From sequence record MN342150: DNA of 64,000 bases. One strand, given 5' to 3'. Shown here one piece after another: positions 38,341 through 59,866 of the stretch. The translations under genes were made by a program, and so were the position numbers. Every line of letters starts with the position of its first letter. Positions within the stretch are counted from its first letter, which is position 1. The DNA is from Escherichia phage vB_EcoM_3HA11. Below the pieces are notes generated by a model, which had not been told where the DNA came from, did no database searches, and saw only the letters and a program-made list of their open reading frames with translations.

Positions 38341-38805
38341 ATGGCGCGTAATACGCTGGACATCTTGAAACTTTCAGCTGTTAACGATGAGGCCAGCATC
38401 GTTGATTGTATGGTTGAAGTTCAATTGAACCAAGATAAACCAGGAATTTTCCTGGGTATCAAGGAAACGCTGAGCCGCATCGGGGTGAACACTCGTCAAG
38501 AGCCGAATACCCTGTACCAAACATGTCATATTCTGCATAAATTTGGCAGATATCACATCGTGCACTTCAAGCATCTTTTCATGCTGGATGGGCATTACAA
38601 CGGCTTTACGCGTGAAGATGTCCTGCGTATGAATCGGATTATTCGGCTTTTGGAGCAGTGGAATATGGTTAAAATACTGCATCCGGAACAGATTACCGAA
38701 GTTGCTGATATGTCTCGAATCAAAGTTGTAAAACATGACCAAGTTTCTGATTGGAAACTGGTTCCAAAATATACCATCCGCCCGAGTCGGGCGAAAAGCG
38801 AATAA
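38341..38805 (+). CDS. regA: Translational repressor RegA-like
   Basis: Segments LYQTCHILHKFGRYHIVHFKHLFMLDGH and C-terminal WKLVPKYTI match recalled T4 RegA; N-terminal extension may reflect an upstream start. Confidence 0.7.
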   Translation: MARNTLDILKLSAVNDEASIVDCMVEVQLNQDKPGIFLGIKETLSRIGVNTRQEPNTLYQTCHILHKFGRYHIVHFKHLFMLDGHYNGFTREDVLRMNRIIRLLEQWNMVKILHPEQITEVADMSRIKVVKHDQVSDWKLVPKYTIRPSRAKSE

Positions 38806-38821
38806 CTGGAGTCGCTATATT

Positions 38822-39685
38822 ATGACAACTACATTTAATAAAAACGTGAGACTGAATCTGGCTTTTGGTAATGCTGCAGGGGACGTGACCGACCCCGACT
38901 TTAGCAAAATTCGCAATCAGGCAAAACTCGTGCTGGAAGAGACCCGCGAACTTCTGGAAGCGGCTTATTACGATCATCAAGTGGTTCTAACATTAGAATT
39001 GAATCCTCGAGAAAGCGAGACGCCGACCACTACCGAAGATCTGATGAAAGCCATCATGGACGCGCAGGGTGATATCACTACTGTTAACGACGGTGTGGCC
39101 CATATCGCGGGTTTCAATGGCGATGAGTGTTTACAGCGCGTGTTTGCTTCCAACATGAGCAAGTTTATCCGCTCTGAAGATGAAGTCGGTCCGGCTCTGG
39201 ACTATTACTATTCTCGCGGTTTCCCTGATGGGCAATTGCGTGTGGAAGGCGAATTCCCTCAGGCATGTATTAAAGTTAATGAAACTGTCGTTTGGAATGG
39301 TAAAGAATATCCTAAAGGGAAATTCCTTAAAAACATGGCCGTTTTCCAAGAGCCTGATTTTTCTGACATGCTGACCAAAACTCCTTCCCGCCAGATCAAC
39401 GATATCGTTGCCAGCATGGCGATTGAAGAAGGTCAGGTGTTTATCGATGATCTCAATGGCGTGGCGTTGGTATCCCCGAACACATTGGGTGTAATCCTTT
39501 CCATGGCTGTTGAAAAAACTTCTCAACCTGTAGAGATCGACGGGCAAATCGAAAGTTATGTGCCAGCGTTCATCGTGGATGACACCAATATGCCTAAGCT
39601 GTGTGGGGTGTGGGGTTCTAATGTTCGTGTTTATGCGAGCACTCCAGTGCAGAACACGGTAACACACCTCTCCCGTATCGATTAA
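38822..39685 (+). CDS. Hypothetical protein, possibly MazG-like N-terminal region
   Basis: 289 aa from internal ATG; N-terminal LVLEETRELLEAA resembles the ExxEL.EA motif of all-alpha NTP pyrophosphatases; weak. Confidence 0.3.
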   Translation: MTTTFNKNVRLNLAFGNAAGDVTDPDFSKIRNQAKLVLEETRELLEAAYYDHQVVLTLELNPRESETPTTTEDLMKAIMDAQGDITTVNDGVAHIAGFNGDECLQRVFASNMSKFIRSEDEVGPALDYYYSRGFPDGQLRVEGEFPQACIKVNETVVWNGKEYPKGKFLKNMAVFQEPDFSDMLTKTPSRQINDIVASMAIEEGQVFIDDLNGVALVSPNTLGVILSMAVEKTSQPVEIDGQIESYVPAFIVDDTNMPKLCGVWGSNVRVYASTPVQNTVTHLSRID

Positions 39686-39751
39686 TATAAACCGTTATTC
39701 ATTAAACAACAGAGGCTATAATGGCCTCTGTTTTTGTATTGAGAGGATACC

Positions 39752-40975
39752 ATGAAAGATAAACCGTGTGACATTCCTTATTGCGGTGTTCGGGAAGCTA
39801 AAATTAAATCTGCACATCCCATGTTAAGCCCATTCCATAAACAACTCGCATACGAATGGATGAGCGAGCGCTATAAGATCCACGTGAGAAAGGACGTCCA
39901 GCGTCTTCCTGCTCCTTGGACGGATAATCCCATACTACGGCAGGTCAAGTTCTGTAACGTCCGGAGAGAGCACGACAGGCAGTCTCTTAACCTGATCAAT
40001 AATATTGTCAAGAACGATGCTCTGGGCATGGCAGACAAGATGTTCAACTGCGTGTTGTTCCGCATGTTCAACCTCTGGGATCCTATCAAGGCTATCGGCG
40101 GTGCTCGCACGATCAAAGAGTTCGCAAACATCGATCTTGATGTAACCCGCAATCAACTTCAGGAATTTGAGGCCAATGGTGGTAAAGTGTTCACCAATGC
40201 ATTCAACACAGGCGGTCTAAAACAATGTCTGGCGTTCCCTGAACTTGTTGTCAACCACAAGGAGCAGCGCTTCGGTGGGATGATGGTTAAGGTACACCGT
40301 GTTGGCCAGGGTGTCGTGGATGAATTGGATTACAAGGTCGCCAAGAAGCTGGTTGAAGAGAATCCTGGGGAGTACACGATTGAGGGTTGGGAGCCGTACA
40401 TGCCAATGCGTGTCATCCGCTCTTTGAAGGCATTCGTCAACAAGTACCCCGATTACTTCAATGATCTTTTACGTCTTGACTCTCCGCTGAAAGTTTACCA
40501 GCGCATGTATGACGACATTGAAGGGCTTGGGCCATTCCTGGCATATCAGATCTGGGTGGACTTCACATACATCCCTGAGTATCCATTCAGTGAGAATCAT
40601 TTCACTATTGCTGGTCCAGGTTGCCGTGCGGGTATTGACCTGATGTTCCTGGATAAGGACGGCATGACTCATGAAGAATGCATCTTCTGGATTCGAGATC
40701 ACCAGTATCAAATGTTTGCTCAGTATGGTTATGTCCGAGAGCAGTTCTGGTCAGCCGAAGCGCCGGAAGATCAGTGCATGAACGTCATGCAGCTGGAGAA
40801 CATGTTCTGTGAATTGAGCAAGTACACCCGCTGTGTTGAGGCCATCGAGAGAGGAGAAAAGCCACGCGGCAAGGTCGGTTATGATGGAGGCGGGGAATAC
40901 AAAAAGCGATGCGATGAAGTTGTCCTCAATCGCGGATCGGTCAATTTGTTAGATCGTTTGAAGAAACCTGAATAA
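39752..40975 (+). CDS. HhH-GPD (DNA glycosylase-like) superfamily protein with Cys cluster
   Basis: Helix-hairpin-helix IEGLGPFLAYQI followed ~25 aa later by Gly/Pro loop and Asp (TIAGPGCRAGID); four C-terminal Cys (C-x10-C-x7-C-x25-C) possibly a metal/Fe-S site. Confidence 0.4.
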   Translation: MKDKPCDIPYCGVREAKIKSAHPMLSPFHKQLAYEWMSERYKIHVRKDVQRLPAPWTDNPILRQVKFCNVRREHDRQSLNLINNIVKNDALGMADKMFNCVLFRMFNLWDPIKAIGGARTIKEFANIDLDVTRNQLQEFEANGGKVFTNAFNTGGLKQCLAFPELVVNHKEQRFGGMMVKVHRVGQGVVDELDYKVAKKLVEENPGEYTIEGWEPYMPMRVIRSLKAFVNKYPDYFNDLLRLDSPLKVYQRMYDDIEGLGPFLAYQIWVDFTYIPEYPFSENHFTIAGPGCRAGIDLMFLDKDGMTHEECIFWIRDHQYQMFAQYGYVREQFWSAEAPEDQCMNVMQLENMFCELSKYTRCVEAIERGEKPRGKVGYDGGGEYKKRCDEVVLNRGSVNLLDRLKKPE

Positions 40976-41039
40976 AGAATCGCTTTACTTCGTTCTTCAA
41001 TAACCCCCTTTCAGCGTATATTGACCTCACTTTAACGAC

Positions 41040-41057
41040 GCGCCCCGATAAGGGCGC
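41040..41057 (+). promoter_or_regulatory. GC hairpin gcgccc-cgataa-gggcgc in intergenic region
   Basis: Perfect 6-bp stem; possible terminator or RNA processing site between the glycosylase-like and 673-aa genes. Confidence 0.3.
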
Positions 41058-41088
41058 TCACTTTGAACTGAAACAGGAAGACTATACC

Positions 41089-43110
41089 ATGGCAGAATTC
41101 AAACCCTTCGCAACAGCAGTTAATAACAACGTTCTGGCGATGTCCGCAACTGGTCTGTTCATGACCAATATCGATAAAGATGCTCTTTGGGATCTGTATC
41201 TGGCATCTTTCCCTGCTGGTACTAACCCGCTGTACCGCGAACGTACTGAACACGATTGCACCTGCTGTAAACAATTCATCCGTAACATCGGCGGTGTTGT
41301 CACCATCGATTCAGAACTGAACGTAATTTCTATCTGGGACAACATTGATCTGGGTAATGAATATGACGTGGTGGCTGCGGCTCTTTCCGCGTATGTTAAA
41401 CAACACGCAATCGTCGATGTTTATTTTAACGATTCTGCCAAAGTCGGCCTGTCTCACAATCACGAATCTGGTGAAGATGGCAAAATCCGTACTTACAATC
41501 ATTTCCATACCCAATTACTTGGTAGCTATGTTCTGCGTCCGGACGCAATCGCTTCGAAAAAAGGTGAAATCCGCCAGGCTATTGAATTGTTTGAACGCGG
41601 TCTGCGTGAAATTACTCTGGAATCAGCTGAAATCGTTCTGGAACTGATTGACCAGAATTCTCTGTATCGCGGCGCAGAACACAAAGCAGCAGTGAAGGGA
41701 TTCGTTGAAACCAAAAAGGCATATGAACAAATCCCCGAATCAGCCCGTTCTCTGTGGACATGGCATACTGGATACCGTTCAAACAATCATGTTCCACACG
41801 GCATCCGTAACACAGTTATCGGCACTCTGCTGACAGATATCAGCGAAGGCGTGGAACTGGAAAAGGCTGTTAAGTCGTTTGAATCCAAAGTTGCTCCGGC
41901 GAACTACAAACGTCCGACAGCGCTGGTTTCAAAATCCATGATCGAAAACGCTCAGAAAGAAGTTATTGCTCTGGGTTTGGAAGACTCACTGGCGCGTCGT
42001 TATGCGGTTTATGATGACCTGACGATCAACAACGTTTTGTTCGCAGATCTGGCCGCTCAGAAAGCGATGGATCCGTTTGCACAGCTGGCCGCAGAAGTGA
42101 AAACTCCGACTAAGTCCTTAGAAAAAGTTGAAGAGATCAGCGTTGATGATTTCCTGAGCAATGTTCTACCAAAAGCGCATTCAATGGAAGTGCTGGTAGA
42201 GAATTCTCATACCAGCAACCTGATGTCCCTGGTTGCTCCGGCGAACCCAGATGCACCTAACCTGTTCAAGTGGAACAACGGTTTCTCCTGGTCTTACAAC
42301 GGTGAAGTGACCGATTCCATTAAAGAACGTGTAAAAGCTGCTGGTGGTAAAGTTGACGGGTATCTGCGCGTTTCCTTGGCGTGGCACAATAACGACGACC
42401 TCGATCTGCATATGTTCTTTAACAATATGGAGCACGTTTACTTCCGTGATCGTCGCTCTATGACAGGTGCCCATCTGGATATCGATATGAACGGTATGGA
42501 TGGTATCGATCCAAACCGCGCTCCGGTGGAAAATATCATCTTTACAGATGAAAGCAAGCTGCGCGATGGTGAATACCGTTTCGAAATCCACAACTACAAT
42601 CAACGTGAAAAGATCGACGAAGGGTTTGAAGTCGAAGTAGAATACAAAGGCGCAACGCATCGTTTCAGCCATCCCGGCCTGAAAGATCAGGGGCGTATCA
42701 CTGCAGTCATCCTGACTGTTAAAGACAAACAAGTTGTTGGCATTAAGTCCGAACTGGCTAATGTTGATAAGTCTAAAGAAGTTTGGGGTATCAAGACTGC
42801 GACCTTCCAGAAAGTACAGCTGGTCCTGAATTCACCAAACCATTGGGATGGGGAGCAAACTGGTAACAAGCATGTGTTCTTCATTCTTGAAGGTTGTGCT
42901 AATCCTGAAGGTACTCGTGGTTTCTACAACGAATATCTGAAGCCAGAACTGGATAAACATCGTAAGGTTTTTGAAATGTTGGGTAGTAAAATGAAAGTCC
43001 AGCCGAATGAAAACCAACTGTCCGGTCTGGGATTCTCGACGACGCAACGCAACCACGTGTTCGTCAAAGTGTCCGGCGCGTTTAACCGTACTGTAAAAGT
43101 CATTTTCTAA
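41089..43110 (+). CDS. Hypothetical large protein (673 aa)
   Basis: Long ORF with RBS-like GGAAG; no confident motif (N-terminal HDCTCCKQF Cys cluster). Confidence 0.5.
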   Translation: MAEFKPFATAVNNNVLAMSATGLFMTNIDKDALWDLYLASFPAGTNPLYRERTEHDCTCCKQFIRNIGGVVTIDSELNVISIWDNIDLGNEYDVVAAALSAYVKQHAIVDVYFNDSAKVGLSHNHESGEDGKIRTYNHFHTQLLGSYVLRPDAIASKKGEIRQAIELFERGLREITLESAEIVLELIDQNSLYRGAEHKAAVKGFVETKKAYEQIPESARSLWTWHTGYRSNNHVPHGIRNTVIGTLLTDISEGVELEKAVKSFESKVAPANYKRPTALVSKSMIENAQKEVIALGLEDSLARRYAVYDDLTINNVLFADLAAQKAMDPFAQLAAEVKTPTKSLEKVEEISVDDFLSNVLPKAHSMEVLVENSHTSNLMSLVAPANPDAPNLFKWNNGFSWSYNGEVTDSIKERVKAAGGKVDGYLRVSLAWHNNDDLDLHMFFNNMEHVYFRDRRSMTGAHLDIDMNGMDGIDPNRAPVENIIFTDESKLRDGEYRFEIHNYNQREKIDEGFEVEVEYKGATHRFSHPGLKDQGRITAVILTVKDKQVVGIKSELANVDKSKEVWGIKTATFQKVQLVLNSPNHWDGEQTGNKHVFFILEGCANPEGTRGFYNEYLKPELDKHRKVFEMLGSKMKVQPNENQLSGLGFSTTQRNHVFVKVSGAFNRTVKVIF

Positions 43111-43147
43111 TTGATTTTACCACAAATTCGTAATAAGGAACAATGAA

Positions 43148-43519
43148 ATGTTTGATCAAGCAACCCGTTTAAAACTGCGTTTCAACTCTAACAAAGGTCT
43201 GCTGTCTGTTGAGCAGGTTTGGGATCTGAACCTGAATGCCCTAAACGAACTGGCGAAAGACCTCAGCCGTCAGGTGAAGGAAGCCGCCAGCGATGAAGAA
43301 GATTTCATCGGCGTGAAAAGCGCAGTCGACTCTCAGTTACAACTGCGTTTCGATATCGTGAAAGCGATCATCGGTGTTAAACTGAAAGAACGTGACGAAA
43401 GCGCAACCGCCGCCGAACGTAAAGCGAATAACCAGGCGATCATGGAACTGATCCAGCGTAAGAAACAGCAGGAACTGGAAGGCCTCTCTGTTGAAGAACT
43501 GGAAAAACTCCTGAAATAA
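43148..43519 (+). CDS. Hypothetical coiled-coil protein
   Basis: 123 aa, charged helical repeats. Confidence 0.35.
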   Translation: MFDQATRLKLRFNSNKGLLSVEQVWDLNLNALNELAKDLSRQVKEAASDEEDFIGVKSAVDSQLQLRFDIVKAIIGVKLKERDESATAAERKANNQAIMELIQRKKQQELEGLSVEELEKLLK

Positions 43520-45241: not shown

Positions 45242-45433
45242 GGCCCAACTGAAAACGCGGGGGAATTTCTTTGTCCAAGCCATTCATTCGTTCCGGAGTT
45301 GATTCTCTAGACTCCCAATTTAAGCCGAGCGAAGTTTTAATCCAACAAATTGAAACCAATCGTGAATTCATAGAACACATGTTGGCAAAGCCGGAAGGTG
45401 AAGCCGCTCAAACCACCAAAGAAGGTAATAACG

Positions 45434-47650
45434 ATGATTGAATCATTAACATTTAAAAATGCGGTAGCAACCGTCGCGCCGTCTAACCATGTAATCGTTG
45501 TGGATATCTCCGGTTCCATGTACCGTTCACTTCCTGAAGTTCGCAAGCATCTGAAGGAAAATCTCCCGTCTCTGGTTAAACCAGAAGATACCGTCAGCAT
45601 TCTTTACTTTTCATCCCGTGGTGATTTCGGTACGGTATTCGCTGGCCGTCAGATCAATAGCGCGACCGATCTCAGTGAAATCAATAAACTGATTGACCGC
45701 TTCCTGCAACCGTCCGGTTGTACGGGATTTGTAGAACCTCTGAAGTTGGCTGCTGAAACCGCGTTGAGCCTGAACAAACCTGGTTATGTCAATAACCTGG
45801 CGTTCATGACCGACGGCTATGACAACTGCTGGCGCTCTAATGAAATTCTGGCAGCAGCTGAAGTACTGCCCAAGGCGTTCGATAATATTACATTCATCGA
45901 ATATGGCTGGTACTGTAACCGCGAACTTCTGGCCCTGATGTCCGAGCGTTCTGGCGCGACTCACGTGTTTGCCGAAGGTCAGACTGAATATCAGACCGAA
46001 CTGGAAAACGTACTGAAATCATCTACGCCGAAAGTGGTTGTTGATGTTCCCCTGGTTTACACTCATGCCATCTACGTTGAAAACGGCGTGGCAACTGTGC
46101 TAGCCGTACAACCAGATGAAGAACACCCGATTGGCCACGTCAGCATCCCTGAAAGCGTTTCTCAGCTGTGGGTTGTAAACCCCGACATGATCGACCAGCT
46201 GGATAATCTGGCAGACACCCAGGCGGCATACGTGCTGGCATTCTATGGCGTGTACACCATGGACGCCGATCTGGTCTGGGCCGCGCTGAAGAAGACGGGT
46301 GACGTCCGCTTCATCAAACAATACAGCAACTGTTTCACCAAGCAGGACTATTCCAACATCAAAGTCGATCTGACCCAGGCTATCGTGGATGAAACTCTGC
46401 GCGGCGTAGATGGCATCGATTACAATATGGTTCCAGCTGAAGATGCAACAACCATTGTTGATGTCTTGACCTACCTGGCCGAAGCCGATGTCTCTGTTGT
46501 CACTAAGCATCCACTGTTCTCTTACAACAGTATTGGGCGCGGTACTGTACAGAAAGTTGACGACACCGAAGACAAATTGGCCGAAGAGATTGCGAATGCG
46601 ACTTCTAAAGAAGAGCGTAAAGCCCTGGCGCTCAAACTGGCCGAGCACGAAGATTGGACGCCGGAATTTACTCCGGTTGATGACAAAGGGATTGTCCCAA
46701 TTAGCAATCTGGTCTATAATTCAGAACGTCCTAACATCAGTGTACAAACAGTTCAACACGGAACGGTTGTTGTACCCGAGTTCGTACAGAAGAAATATGA
46801 ACTTCCTGAAGAGTTGGGAACCTGGCGTTATCGCAATTACACCATTGTCAAGGATGGTATCATCAACCTGAAAACAATGCCTATTACTGCGGATTCTCCG
46901 ATTGTTCGGGCTAAGGTGGCACAGGATTTGACTGCCATGGGTGTTCATGTGTTTGGTGGACCGGAAGTCTTCATTGTAAATCTGGAAAGTGTCCCAATGG
47001 TTAACCGCGCTATGACAAAGAATATCAGTGCTGCTGAATTCTTTGCAGACAATGTGCGCCGTGAAGCATTGAAGGCGAAACAAAAAGTTCTGAAATTCTA
47101 TCGTGATGAGCTGGTTGGTAAAGGCAATGCTGCTGGTTTGGCTTCAAAATATGGCAAAGAAGCGGCTGATTTCCTGTCAGCAAACGGCATTCGCGACTAT
47201 GGATTTTCACCGAAGACTTCTTCTGTAGAATCAACTGATGTCTATATGAGTCGTGAATTGAATGTGAAAATCAAAGGCGCATCTTCACTGCCGAGCATCG
47301 CGTCTGTTATCAAAAAACAGACGGACGGTAAAAAACTGAATGTCGCTGATCAGCTGATCGCTAATGCCCTGGCTGAATACAATGCATTCGTTAAATCACC
47401 GATGATCACCAGCGTACCGGAAGAGACTCAGAAAAAGCTGATCGAAAGTTGGATTGGTGATGCAGCAAAAGCAGCTATCAACGAAGTTCGCGCTCTGAAC
47501 AAAACGCTGTCCAAGGTAGTTTATGGGATTGTTGCAGGCCATGGTTGGTTTACCGACCTGGATTTGGAAGAATCCACTATGGATGTGGAAGTTGATGGGG
47601 TGAAATACACCGTCACTGCCGAACTGGCCGAAAAAGAAGTCAAAATCTAA
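45434..47650 (+). CDS. von Willebrand factor A (vWA) domain protein with MIDAS motif
   Basis: N-terminal VIVVDISGSMY (DxSxS) followed by hydrophobic strands typical of vWA; 738 aa from ATG after AAGAAGG. Confidence 0.6.
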   Translation: MIESLTFKNAVATVAPSNHVIVVDISGSMYRSLPEVRKHLKENLPSLVKPEDTVSILYFSSRGDFGTVFAGRQINSATDLSEINKLIDRFLQPSGCTGFVEPLKLAAETALSLNKPGYVNNLAFMTDGYDNCWRSNEILAAAEVLPKAFDNITFIEYGWYCNRELLALMSERSGATHVFAEGQTEYQTELENVLKSSTPKVVVDVPLVYTHAIYVENGVATVLAVQPDEEHPIGHVSIPESVSQLWVVNPDMIDQLDNLADTQAAYVLAFYGVYTMDADLVWAALKKTGDVRFIKQYSNCFTKQDYSNIKVDLTQAIVDETLRGVDGIDYNMVPAEDATTIVDVLTYLAEADVSVVTKHPLFSYNSIGRGTVQKVDDTEDKLAEEIANATSKEERKALALKLAEHEDWTPEFTPVDDKGIVPISNLVYNSERPNISVQTVQHGTVVVPEFVQKKYELPEELGTWRYRNYTIVKDGIINLKTMPITADSPIVRAKVAQDLTAMGVHVFGGPEVFIVNLESVPMVNRAMTKNISAAEFFADNVRREALKAKQKVLKFYRDELVGKGNAAGLASKYGKEAADFLSANGIRDYGFSPKTSSVESTDVYMSRELNVKIKGASSLPSIASVIKKQTDGKKLNVADQLIANALAEYNAFVKSPMITSVPEETQKKLIESWIGDAAKAAINEVRALNKTLSKVVYGIVAGHGWFTDLDLEESTMDVEVDGVKYTVTAELAEKEVKI

Positions 47651-57466: not shown

Positions 57467-58248
57467 GGATTATCACAATGGGTATGAATTTTGTAGACAG
57501 AGGTGATAACGTCACCAAATATTTCACAGACGAAGATAACGATCGAGTTGTGGGGATATTGCGTGATTGGATCCCTGCTCGTAAAAAGGCATTAGCCGAA
57601 GGAACACCCCTACCAAGAATCCCCAATTATGTGGCCATGAATGTTCAGATGATTATTAAGAACATGAGTATGCGCTACAACTATCGTGATTATCCATACC
57701 GCGAAGACATGGTCAGTGAGGCCGTTGTCAACATCCTTCGTTACCTCCATACATTTGATGTCAGTCATATTGGCAAGAAAGGAAAAATCAATTTTTTCTC
57801 TTGGGTAACGATGTGCGCCGACCGTTCATTCGCCAAGAAACTCACCAGTGAAGAAGAACACAATTATATCAAGTTGCGTTCCTTTGAAGAAGCAGGTGGG
57901 TTCGCTGCATTATCGGATGACCCAGACTTCCAACAACAAACCTTCGTTGATAGCACTGGGATAACGATGGACTTTCGTGAGCGTATCGGAAATTTTGAAA
58001 CTAAGAAAGAAGCCCAGCGCGAAAAGGAACGCCAAAAGCAAATCGCCATCAAAGAAGAGGAAAAGAATAAGAAAATTCCTCGCGGTATACTTCAATGTCT
58101 CACAAAGAGTGAAAATACCATTACCGCCGACGCCGAAGATAATTCAGACCATGACTTCGGCTCTACTCAATTTAGTCTTGAAGATATAATGGACAGCCCC
58201 ACATTGTTAGCCGAATCAGTTGGAGAAAAGAATAATGGCGATTGCTAA
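57463..58248 (+). CDS. Late-transcription sigma factor gp55-like (tentative)
   Basis: 261 aa; adjacent to gp47/gp46-like genes (T4 gene 55 neighbours 47); acidic C-terminal tail; assignment mainly positional. Confidence 0.35.
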   Translation: MRIITMGMNFVDRGDNVTKYFTDEDNDRVVGILRDWIPARKKALAEGTPLPRIPNYVAMNVQMIIKNMSMRYNYRDYPYREDMVSEAVVNILRYLHTFDVSHIGKKGKINFFSWVTMCADRSFAKKLTSEEEHNYIKLRSFEEAGGFAALSDDPDFQQQTFVDSTGITMDFRERIGNFETKKEAQREKERQKQIAIKEEEKNKKIPRGILQCLTKSENTITADAEDNSDHDFGSTQFSLEDIMDSPTLLAESVGEKNNGDC

Positions 58249-58487
58249 AATTGGCGATTTACACATCGGGAGCCGCAATGGTTCCCGTTACGTTCGTGAA
58301 TTCATAAAGAATTATCTCATCAACTATTTTATTCCCGAATTGGTAGATGCAGACATTAAAGAAGTTTGGCAATTCGGCGACACATTTGATGTTCGTAAAT
58401 TTATGTACGGGCGCGACAAAGATTGGTTGAAAGATGAACTGACGCCAGCCCTGAGAAAGGCGGGTATCAAATGGAATGGCATCGTTG

Positions 58488-59001
58488 GAAACCATGATAT
58501 CACCTTAGAAGAATCTAACCGTATCAACTGGCCATCCTATCTGAATGAATTAGCGCCAGACGTCTATCATTATTACAGTGAACCCACTGAAGTTTCGATT
58601 GAAGGCGAAAAGGTATTGCTTCTCCCATGGATCAATAAAGAGAATTATGATGCATCTGTTAAAGCGATACAAGATACAGACGCCAAGTACTGTTTTGCGC
58701 ATCTGGAGTTGGCAGGGTTCAAAATGTACCAGTCCTCTGTATGTGATAAAGGTCAGATCGACGTGGCGCTCCTTTCCAAGTTCGAACGCGTGGATACCGG
58801 ACATTTCCATACCCGTTCGATGGAAGGTAACATTCAGTATATTGGGACTCCTTATCACCTTACCTGGGAAGACCATAAAGACGGGACGAACCGAGGATTC
58901 TATGTAGACGATATGAAAGGTGGGGAATTGTTTATTCCCAACAGCGAGCAACAAACGTTGTTCCGATTCATAGAATACGATTACACCCAAATGTCTTCCG
59001 A
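58488..59001 (+). repeat. Tandem direct repeat, copy 1 (514 bp)
   Basis: Identical to 59002..59515; ORF pairs 58550..59041 / 59064..59504 and 58578..58907 / 59092..59421 are offset by exactly 514 bp. Confidence 0.85.
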
Positions 59002-59515
59002 GAAACCATGATATCACCTTAGAAGAATCTAACCGTATCAACTGGCCATCCTATCTGAATGAATTAGCGCCAGACGTCTATCATTATTACAGTGAACCCA
59101 CTGAAGTTTCGATTGAAGGCGAAAAGGTATTGCTTCTCCCATGGATCAATAAAGAGAATTATGATGCATCTGTTAAAGCGATACAAGATACAGACGCCAA
59201 GTACTGTTTTGCGCATCTGGAGTTGGCAGGGTTCAAAATGTACCAGTCCTCTGTATGTGATAAAGGTCAGATCGACGTGGCGCTCCTTTCCAAGTTCGAA
59301 CGCGTGGATACCGGACATTTCCATACCCGTTCGATGGAAGGTAACATTCAGTATATTGGGACTCCTTATCACCTTACCTGGGAAGACCATAAAGACGGGA
59401 CGAACCGAGGATTCTATGTAGACGATATGAAAGGTGGGGAATTGTTTATTCCCAACAGCGAGCAACAAACGTTGTTCCGATTCATAGAATACGATTACAC
59501 CCAAATGTCTTCCGA
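59002..59515 (+). repeat. Tandem direct repeat, copy 2 (514 bp)
   Basis: See copy 1. Confidence 0.85.
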
Positions 59516-59866
59516 CACCGAAGGAAATTGGATAGACCCAGATTGGTTAAACAATGATTTGGGTATTGAAGGACAAATCGTTAAGGTGATTGTACAGAAC
59601 CGTGATAATGCTAAGCATTATGAAAAGTTCTGCGACGCGCTGAAGCGTTGTAAATGCATCGATTATAACTTTATAGACCGGACTATCACAGTTGCGTCTG
59701 AGAAGGTAGAAGTCACTGAAGAGATGGTGGCGACTGATGCTGTGGAAGTCCTGAAGAAAGATATCCGCGCCGCCAATAATATCCAGCGCCCTGAAAATGT
59801 TTGCAAATTAGCAGAACAATTCTATAATGCTGCCCAACAACGCCTGAACACATTGGATGCATAATA

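Follow-up and report, generated by a model that had tools for sequence, protein, structure and literature searches.

The genome of Escherichia phage vB_EcoM_3HA11 (sequence record MN342150) raises the question of what a protein resembling DNA glycosylases does among the replication genes of a phage. The stretch of this record that was analyzed, 64,000 nucleotides long and hereafter called the window, carries on its plus strand an open reading frame (ORF), at 39752..40975, that encodes a protein of 407 amino acids (aa) and is preceded by a ribosome-binding site (GAGAGGA) upstream of the ATG at 39752. A preliminary description, made from the letters of the window alone, had noticed this gene downstream of sliding clamp, clamp-loader and regA genes and had seen in its product a glycosylase-like enzyme with a helix-hairpin-helix (HhH), serving either DNA repair or, as a declared speculation, the hypermodification of thymidine. 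The ORF is real, as its product has tblastn matches in 412 phage records and as a profile search retrieved 4464 representative clusters of its family at E ≤ 1e-3. Here we report that the protein is part of the gene set for post-replicative modification of thymidine, that its predicted fold resembles that of the glycosylases without making it one of them, and that it is fairly probably a catalytic, base-flipping DNA enzyme.

Identity of the 407-aa Protein

Judged by its sequence, the 407-aa protein is the ortholog of gp160 of Salmonella phage ViI, since 394 of its 407 residues (97%) are identical to those of Vi01_130c (YP_004327501) over the full length and since the GenBank note on Vi01_130c reads "orf00160." The numbering in the same notes ties gp226, gp243, and gp247 to Vi01_182, Vi01_196, and Vi01_199, and the accessions agree with a published table (Table 1 of PMC8989533). 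In Pfam, the protein matches PF18723 (HMUDK_hel, "5-hmdU DNA kinase, helical domain") with E = 3e-82 and 276.6 bits, the curated gathering threshold being 25, its residues 31-366 covering positions 5-280 of the 281 in the profile, while ViI gp247 falls into PF18724 ("ADDT, amino acid:DNA transferase," E = 3.2e-58) and gp243 into PF18747 ("HMUD2"). PF18723 is presumably the former clade 1 of the alpha-glutamyl/putrescinyl-thymine pyrophosphorylases (aGPT-Pplase), and PF18724 is what we take to be their former clade 2; the ortholog is still labelled "Pplase1" or "aGPT-Pplase1" in some phage records.

Under the name "aG/PT-PPlase1," gp160 was predicted by Phyre2 to adopt a helix-hairpin-helix DNA-glycosylase fold, and E. 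coli lysates of five proteins (gp67, gp160, gp226, gp243, and gp247) jointly turned DNA containing 5-hydroxymethyl-deoxyuridine (5-hydroxymethyl-dU, 5-hmdU) into DNA containing 5-(2-aminoethoxy)methyl-dU (5-NeOmdU; Lee et al., 2018; PMC5889632). The 407-aa protein belongs to this gene set, which converts 5-hmdU to 5-NeOmdU after replication, and the context that had been offered as speculation was the right one. As an observation this adds little: for the ViI protein, with its 97% identity, the gene, the glycosylase-like fold, and the connection with thymidine hypermodification are already in the literature, and a Pfam family exists.

Fold and Relation to DNA Glycosylases

An AlphaFold2 model built from an alignment of 22 sequences (pLDDT, the predicted local distance difference test, 84.7; pTM, the predicted template modeling score, 0.81) shows a two-lobed helical fold in which an HhH element is followed by a Gly/Pro-rich loop, as in the two-domain fold of the HhH-GPD enzymes. 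By this model, the 407-aa protein has a helix-hairpin-helix DNA-glycosylase-like fold, and the conclusion drawn earlier from the segment IEGLGPFLAYQI and the Gly/Pro loop was correct at the level of the superfamily. Both elements, at residues 256-270 and 287-294, are present and conserved in an alignment (A2) of 60 members of the family, which share 25-47% identity with the window protein and were drawn from the profile search mentioned above.

Below that level the assignment to HhH-GPD enzymes was borne out only in part: the HhH-type fold of the model and the membership in PF18723 stood, whereas the HhH-GPD profile PF00730 was unmatched in Pfam at E ≤ 10, where the only other hit was a chance-level one to ClpS (E = 0.11), and Foldseek against the Protein Data Bank (PDB) returned nothing at E ≤ 0.001. 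A phmmer search of PDB sequences at E ≤ 10 and a search of NCBIfam also gave no match. Two residue-level claims failed. The aspartate of the segment AGPGCRAGID, D296, had been taken for that of the GPD motif; it is Asp in 28 of the 60 members of A2, Asn in 12 and Lys in 6. In true HhH-GPD enzymes the catalytic Asp is, as a rule, invariant. The invariant aspartate of the family, D270, sits inside the HhH segment, before the loop. Likewise, a cluster of cysteines had been pointed out: C353 (58/60) and C291 (48/60) are the only two of the 11 cysteines of the protein that the family retains, each of the remaining nine being Cys in 1-23 of the 60 sequences (7-11 for C310, C342, and C361), and neither a conserved metal site nor the C-terminal four-Cys iron-sulfur (Fe-S) loop, [4Fe-4S], of the EndoIII/MutY type was found. 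On this alignment the nine non-conserved cysteines are lineage-specific. With PF00730 unmatched and the "GPD" aspartate not conserved, the protein is, on these comparisons, not a canonical HhH-GPD glycosylase.

Conserved Residues and a Putative Catalytic Motif

Three elements listed in Table 1 are conserved in A2. In and just after the HhH element, D270 and Y273 are found in all 60 sequences, F262 and Q266 in 59, Y265 in 58 and G258 in 52, and in the Gly/Pro loop G288, G290, and G294 each reach 58/60, P289 55/60. The third element holds E349 (52/60, with Q in 7), N350, C353, and E354 (58/60 each) and K357 (57/60), that is, 87-97%. Further residues conserved across the family are R40, P55-W56-T57, F67-x-N69-x-x-R72-E73-x-D75, R104, N107, A150, and E281; all family motifs are present in the window protein and are 80-100% conserved in A2, except for E73 (39/60).

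The third element can be aligned with a motif of the amino-acid:DNA transferases of the ADDT family, which includes PaMx11 gp46 (PUGT, PDB 8Z2M), ViI gp247, and M6 gp51 and whose members appear as distant paralogs of the 407-aa protein. In hhalign alignments of clade 1 against ADDT, which were used for residue correspondence and not as proof of homology, G260-P-F262 faces G144-P-W146 of PUGT and the E349-N350/C353 motif is paired with E243-T244-I-L-C247-K, with a statistically weak probability of 5.5% and E = 0.007; ViI gp247 reads D-T-L-L-C-E-K at this position. In PUGT, Cys247 clamps the flipped base and Glu243 and Thr244 hold a metal that contacts O4, and E243A and C247A variants have been produced (PMC11472151). 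The conserved Cys and the Glu next to it are essential in both M6 gp51 and ViI gp247, and an exocyclic-methylene intermediate of the transferase can be trapped with borohydride or beta-mercaptoethanol (PMC8989533).

Genomic Context of the Family

The modification genes of Kuttervirus are scattered: the 407-aa gene lies about 60 kb from that of the kinase gp243, which in ViI is found at 149.6 kb, beyond the stretch colinear with the window, and no kinase gene was found within the window itself. The association with 5-hmdU kinases and with a homolog of thymidylate synthase (TS) resembling dUMP hydroxymethylases is seen in relatives, in which these genes are adjacent or fused. Homologs with 42-47% identity lie in compact clusters with the order PolB, an intervening gene, HMUD2 kinase, ADDT, HMUDK_hel, then, after a gap, a protein of ~303 aa, HMUD1 kinase and the TS homolog, and finally, after another gap, a dUTPase. 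In PaMx11, the kinase (gp49), HMUDK_hel (gp50), and the TS homolog (gp51) stand side by side, and P0123 has a fusion of HMUDK_hel with an HMUD1-type kinase.

Two syntenic clusters (L086/L087 and L090) showed no ADDT gene within ±10 kb or as far as the contig reached, HMUDK_hel following directly upon the HMUD2 kinase. They keep the kinase, HMUDK_hel, and TS, and their HMUDK_hel proteins retain the GPGC and ENxxCE motifs. From their gene content, L086 and L090 look like natural "minus-transferase" variants. The spans without ADDT run from 7364 to 9277 in L086 and from 4919 to 6863 in L090, compared with 7470-10568 in L088 and 8043-11158 in L091, where ADDT is present; all four clusters come from contigs of uncultured phages, 41-146 kb in length. 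Similarly, in Bacillus phage SP10 no ADDT was found between 90 and 140 kb, only a domain of the HMUDK_hel type, and Table 3 of Lee et al. (2018; PMC5889632) gives no second paralog for this phage.

Outside Ackermannviridae, 58 viral loci had no match to an ADDT profile within 10 kb, a result obtained with small hidden Markov models (HMMs) that also left most of these loci without detectable kinases; it is only suggestive, and the argument that the family can do without the transferase rests on the four syntenic clusters with precomputed Pfam labels, not on these loci. The same set contains neighbors of 330-416 aa without a Pfam match, a gene resembling TET-associated glycosyltransferases (TAGT-like) in 17 loci, and, as common neighbors, dCMP deaminase, D5-like primase-helicase, PolA, and a PD-(D/E)XK nuclease. 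A large group of uncultured viral contigs (L030-L084, mostly ~40-60 kb) has HMUDK_hel in a replication module, beside dCMP deaminase, D5-like primase-helicase, and PolA, and neither a kinase nor ADDT was detectable there within 10 kb with the custom profiles.

Proposed Mechanism and Alternative Explanations

We consider it fairly probable that the 407-aa protein works catalytically, as a base-flipping DNA enzyme whose substrate is the kinase-made phosphorylated form of 5-hmdU (5-PmdU). It would bind duplex DNA through its HhH element, like the Ser/Gly:DNA transferases ViI gp247 and PaMx11 PUGT, and a 5-hydroxymethyl-dU phosphorylated by a 5-HMUDK kinase would be flipped out; Cys353, aided by Glu349, Asn350, and Glu354, would then attack C6 of the pyrimidine, and the phosphate would leave to give an enzyme-bound exocyclic 5-methylene intermediate. 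As to how this intermediate would be quenched, we would guess first at an outcome for 5-PmdU other than O-serinylation: it might be reduced to thymine, or a different nucleophile might be transferred. The catalytic reading is proposed because E349, N350, C353, E354, and K357 are conserved throughout the family and align with PUGT and gp247, because the counterpart Cys and Glu are essential in M6 gp51 and ViI gp247, and because the kinase, HMUDK_hel, and TS are retained in clusters where no transferase is seen.

Several points weigh against it. Neither of the two studies concerned (PMC5889632, PMC8989533) describes an activity of gp160 or of another clade-1 protein, and the later reconstitution listed functions only for gp67/gp243, gp247, and gp226, found gp55, the second paralog in M6, dispensable for the glycinyl product, and obtained activity from five 5-HMUDK kinases without an HMUDK_hel domain (PMC8989533). 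The name chosen by the Pfam curators presents the family as a "helical domain" belonging to the kinase. The similarity to the transferases in hhalign is weak, Foldseek returned no significant PDB match, and the absence of ADDT from clusters was judged from precomputed Pfam hits or small custom HMMs, within ±10 kb or up to where the contig stops, so that divergent transferases could be missed.

Among the fates of the intermediate, one would answer an older question. In ViI, M6, SP10, and PhiW-14, DNA is reported to be first made with 5-hmdU fully replacing T, and 5-hmdU is then converted to the hypermodified base or to canonical thymine according to sequence context (PMC8989533); in ViI-type phages, only ~16-40% of T positions are modified in the end. 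The route from 5-hmdU to thymidine was described as still unknown in 2018 (PMC5889632). HMUDK_hel might be the enzyme that turns 5-hmdU in new phage DNA back to thymine: Cys353 would add to C6 of 5-PmdU, the phosphate would be lost, and the exocyclic methylene would be reduced instead of being captured by serine, so that two pairs of kinase and HhH enzyme would split the genomic 5-hmdU between thymine and 5-NeOmdU. Borohydride is known to turn the transferase intermediate into dT (PMC8989533), and a methylene reductase of clade 1 would explain the persistence of kinase, HMUDK_hel, and TS without a transferase. We hold this as a tentative and rather doubtful proposal, because the 407-aa protein has no recognisable domain for binding a hydride donor and because SP10 makes glutamyl-thymidine with HMUDK_hel as the only domain type of this kind, which is a reason for doubt since glutamyl transfer would then be left without an enzyme.

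The best-surviving alternative to a catalytic enzyme is a non-catalytic partner of the 5-hmdU DNA kinase, whose HhH domain would bind DNA and flip or present 5-hmdU, or set the sequence context, for the P-loop kinases gp67 and gp243. The Pfam name suggests as much, HMUDK_hel is fused to kinases in SP10 gp186 and P0123 and directly adjoins them in PaMx11, L083, L086, L088, L090, and L091, and with the M6 kinase on its own only ~23% of 5-hmdU became phosphorylated in vitro (PMC8989533), so that a helper would have a place. However, the Cys/Glu motif of catalytic transferases would hardly be expected to persist in a passive helical domain at such frequencies in very divergent members; moreover, the kinases are active without HMUDK_hel, the SP10 kinase domain alone included, and the Kuttervirus gene is far away from gp243. 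We give this explanation a low probability.

A redundant or alternative group transferase, applying the chemistry of gp247 with another nucleophile (amino acid or polyamine) or in another sequence context and yielding a minor or conditional modification, would account for the putative catalytic motif and the fold that resemble those of ADDT/PUGT and for SP10, which makes alpha-glutamyl-thymidine and in which only the clade-1 domain was found; furthermore, both proteins were first described as a paralogous pair (PMC8989533). On the other hand, 5-NeOmdU is, alongside thymidine, the only hypermodification product described for ViI-type DNA in the studies consulted, the one transferase reported to be necessary is gp247 (PMC8989533), and the ADDT profile did not match the 407-aa protein even at E ≤ 10, which makes such an activity unlikely. 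An ordinary HhH-GPD repair glycosylase of the EndoIII, MutY, Ogg, or AlkA type, to which the replication and recombination genes next to the 407-aa gene might point, is very improbable given the missing profile and PDB sequence matches, the variable D296, the lack of a four-Cys Fe-S motif, and a family that travels with 5-hmdU kinases and dUMP-hydroxymethylase-like genes rather than with repair genes.

Clade 1 is a very large family of DNA-acting proteins (4464 representative clusters) whose Cys/Glu motif matches the catalytic one of the transferases and which stay beside 5-hmdU kinases in clusters that show no transferase gene. The question of how 5-hydroxymethyl-dU becomes thymine at the level of the polymer becomes testable with a single purified protein, and the answer would be relevant to enzymatic tools that rewrite 5-hmU in DNA.

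Genomic Setting and Neighboring Genes

The 4.5 kb around the gene (38700-43200) are, as DNA, 92-94% identical to many Kuttervirus (Ackermannviridae) phages, and the window, which is part of a Kuttervirus genome, is colinear in reverse orientation with phage ViI from ~120 kb down to ~66 kb. The genes for the sliding clamp, two clamp-loader subunits, and regA lie upstream, where the preliminary description had recognized them in agreement with the annotation of close relatives. It had also supposed that the DNA polymerase, which T4 carries at this place as gene 43, was replaced here. This is not so: in ViI the polymerase is found at 145.1-148.1 kb, beside gp243 and gp247, outside the region that corresponds to the window, and the ViI polymerase, gp243, gp247, and gp226, all located at 140-152 kb, have no tblastn match in the window. 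From these positions, the difference from T4 is one of gene order only.

Both flanking proteins had been called uncharacterised, which holds for the 673-aa protein downstream, in that it has no named function, and fails for the one upstream, as for the 407-aa protein itself, which are in known families (Table 1). The upstream gene was correctly seen as MazG-like, at 287 aa instead of the 289 aa first given, and has a homolog in all 25 Ackermannviridae sequences examined, the window included. Phages with 5-hmdU need to clear dTTP and dUTP (pathway description, PMC8989533), and the MazG-like protein is plausibly a candidate for this clearance, a role drawn from that description. With a strong terminator-like hairpin between them, the MazG-like and 407-aa genes may not be strictly co-transcribed.

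Table 1. Features of the 407-aa gene and its neighbors (positions in the window), and local sequences at the putative catalytic motif.
Feature	Position	Strand	Local sequence	Basis and remarks
MazG-like nucleotide pyrophosphohydrolase gene, 287 aa	38822..39685	+		PHROG 2144 "MazG-like pyrophosphatase," E = 2.8e-132
Terminator-like hairpin	39708..39732	+		11-bp stem, then T run (TTTTGT); consensus scan and the sequence itself; between MazG-like and 407-aa genes
HhH element, residues 256-270	40517..40561	+	IEGLGPFLAYQIWVD	A2 conservation, hhalign; ends in invariant D270
Gly/Pro loop, residues 287-294	40610..40633	+	AGPGCRAG	A2 conservation; contains C291
Putative catalytic motif	40793..40825	+	L-E349-N350-M-F-C353-E354-L-S-K357-Y	A2 conservation, alignment to PUGT and gp247
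673-aa conserved phage protein, TerD-like beta-sandwich domain	41089..43110	+		Neighbor only; no tie to the modification pathway claimed
Motif region, window protein			QLENMFCELSK	
Motif region, PaMx11 gp50 (HMUDK_hel)			EVEHTLCEFDK	
Motif region, SP10 gp186			LEGWCCEMSK	
Motif region, PUGT			EVETILCKWK	
Motif region, ViI gp247			PDTLLCEK	

Downstream of the 407-aa gene, the 673-aa ORF is followed by small ORFs and, ~2.3 kb beyond the TerD-like protein, by a gene for a 750-aa protein with a von Willebrand factor A (vWA) domain (45398-47650; Pfam VWA, E = 8e-7), near which acyl-carrier-protein genes are found. A TerD-like protein with a vWA partner is reminiscent of stress or nucleotide systems of the Ter type.

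An exact tandem duplication of 514 bp (58488-59001 = 59002-59515) lies inside the gene of an SbcD-like nuclease of the T4 gp47 type, which in ViI is one coding sequence of 1116 nt (371 codons) and here is split into two ORFs (58220..59011 and 59130..59864), since 514 cannot be divided evenly by 3; this duplication could be a genuine disruption or an artefact of assembly or of terminal overlap. Between the first 7453 nucleotides of the window and the ViI regions compared there was no extended match at the nucleotide level, the remainder of the window being 94-99% identical; these nucleotides adjoin the tail-spike/tail-fibre region of ViI, probably the host-range-variable part of the genome.

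Comparison with Known Systems

The closest known counterpart, ViI gp160, occupies the same place between the MazG-like and the 673-aa genes and belongs to the same Pfam family, and we see no difference of substance between the two proteins.

The amino-acid:DNA transferases resemble the 407-aa protein in fold, and their catalytic Cys and Glu align, weakly, with its own Cys/Glu motif. BLASTP against ViI gp247 gave no significant similarity, and the family has conserved N-terminal motifs of its own (F67-x-N69-x-x-R72-E-x-D75, R104, and N107), as well as the GPGC loop; a transfer of amino acids to 5-PmdU by gp160 is reported in neither of the two studies of the pathway (PMC5889632, PMC8989533).

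Another member of the family is the C-terminal domain of gp186 of phage SP10, whose residues 290-603 are matched by the A2 profile with E = 8.5e-56 and which keeps the C-C-E-x-x-K-Y motif, as in the family of the window protein. The SP10 domain is fused to a 5-HMUDK kinase, whereas the window protein is free-standing and has, compared with the SP10 domain, a beta-hairpin insertion of ~40 residues (residues ~165-210) typical of Ackermannviridae.

Finally, the HhH-GPD glycosylases (EndoIII/NTHL1, MutY/MUTYH, Ogg, AlkA) and the queuosine-salvage hydrolase QNG1/DUF2419 have in common with the 407-aa protein the two-lobed helical fold, the HhH, and the Gly/Pro-rich loop. In contrast to the glycosylases, the 407-aa protein has neither membership in their profile, nor a conserved aspartate after the loop, nor the Fe-S cysteines, and its family carries instead the conserved Cys/Glu motif.

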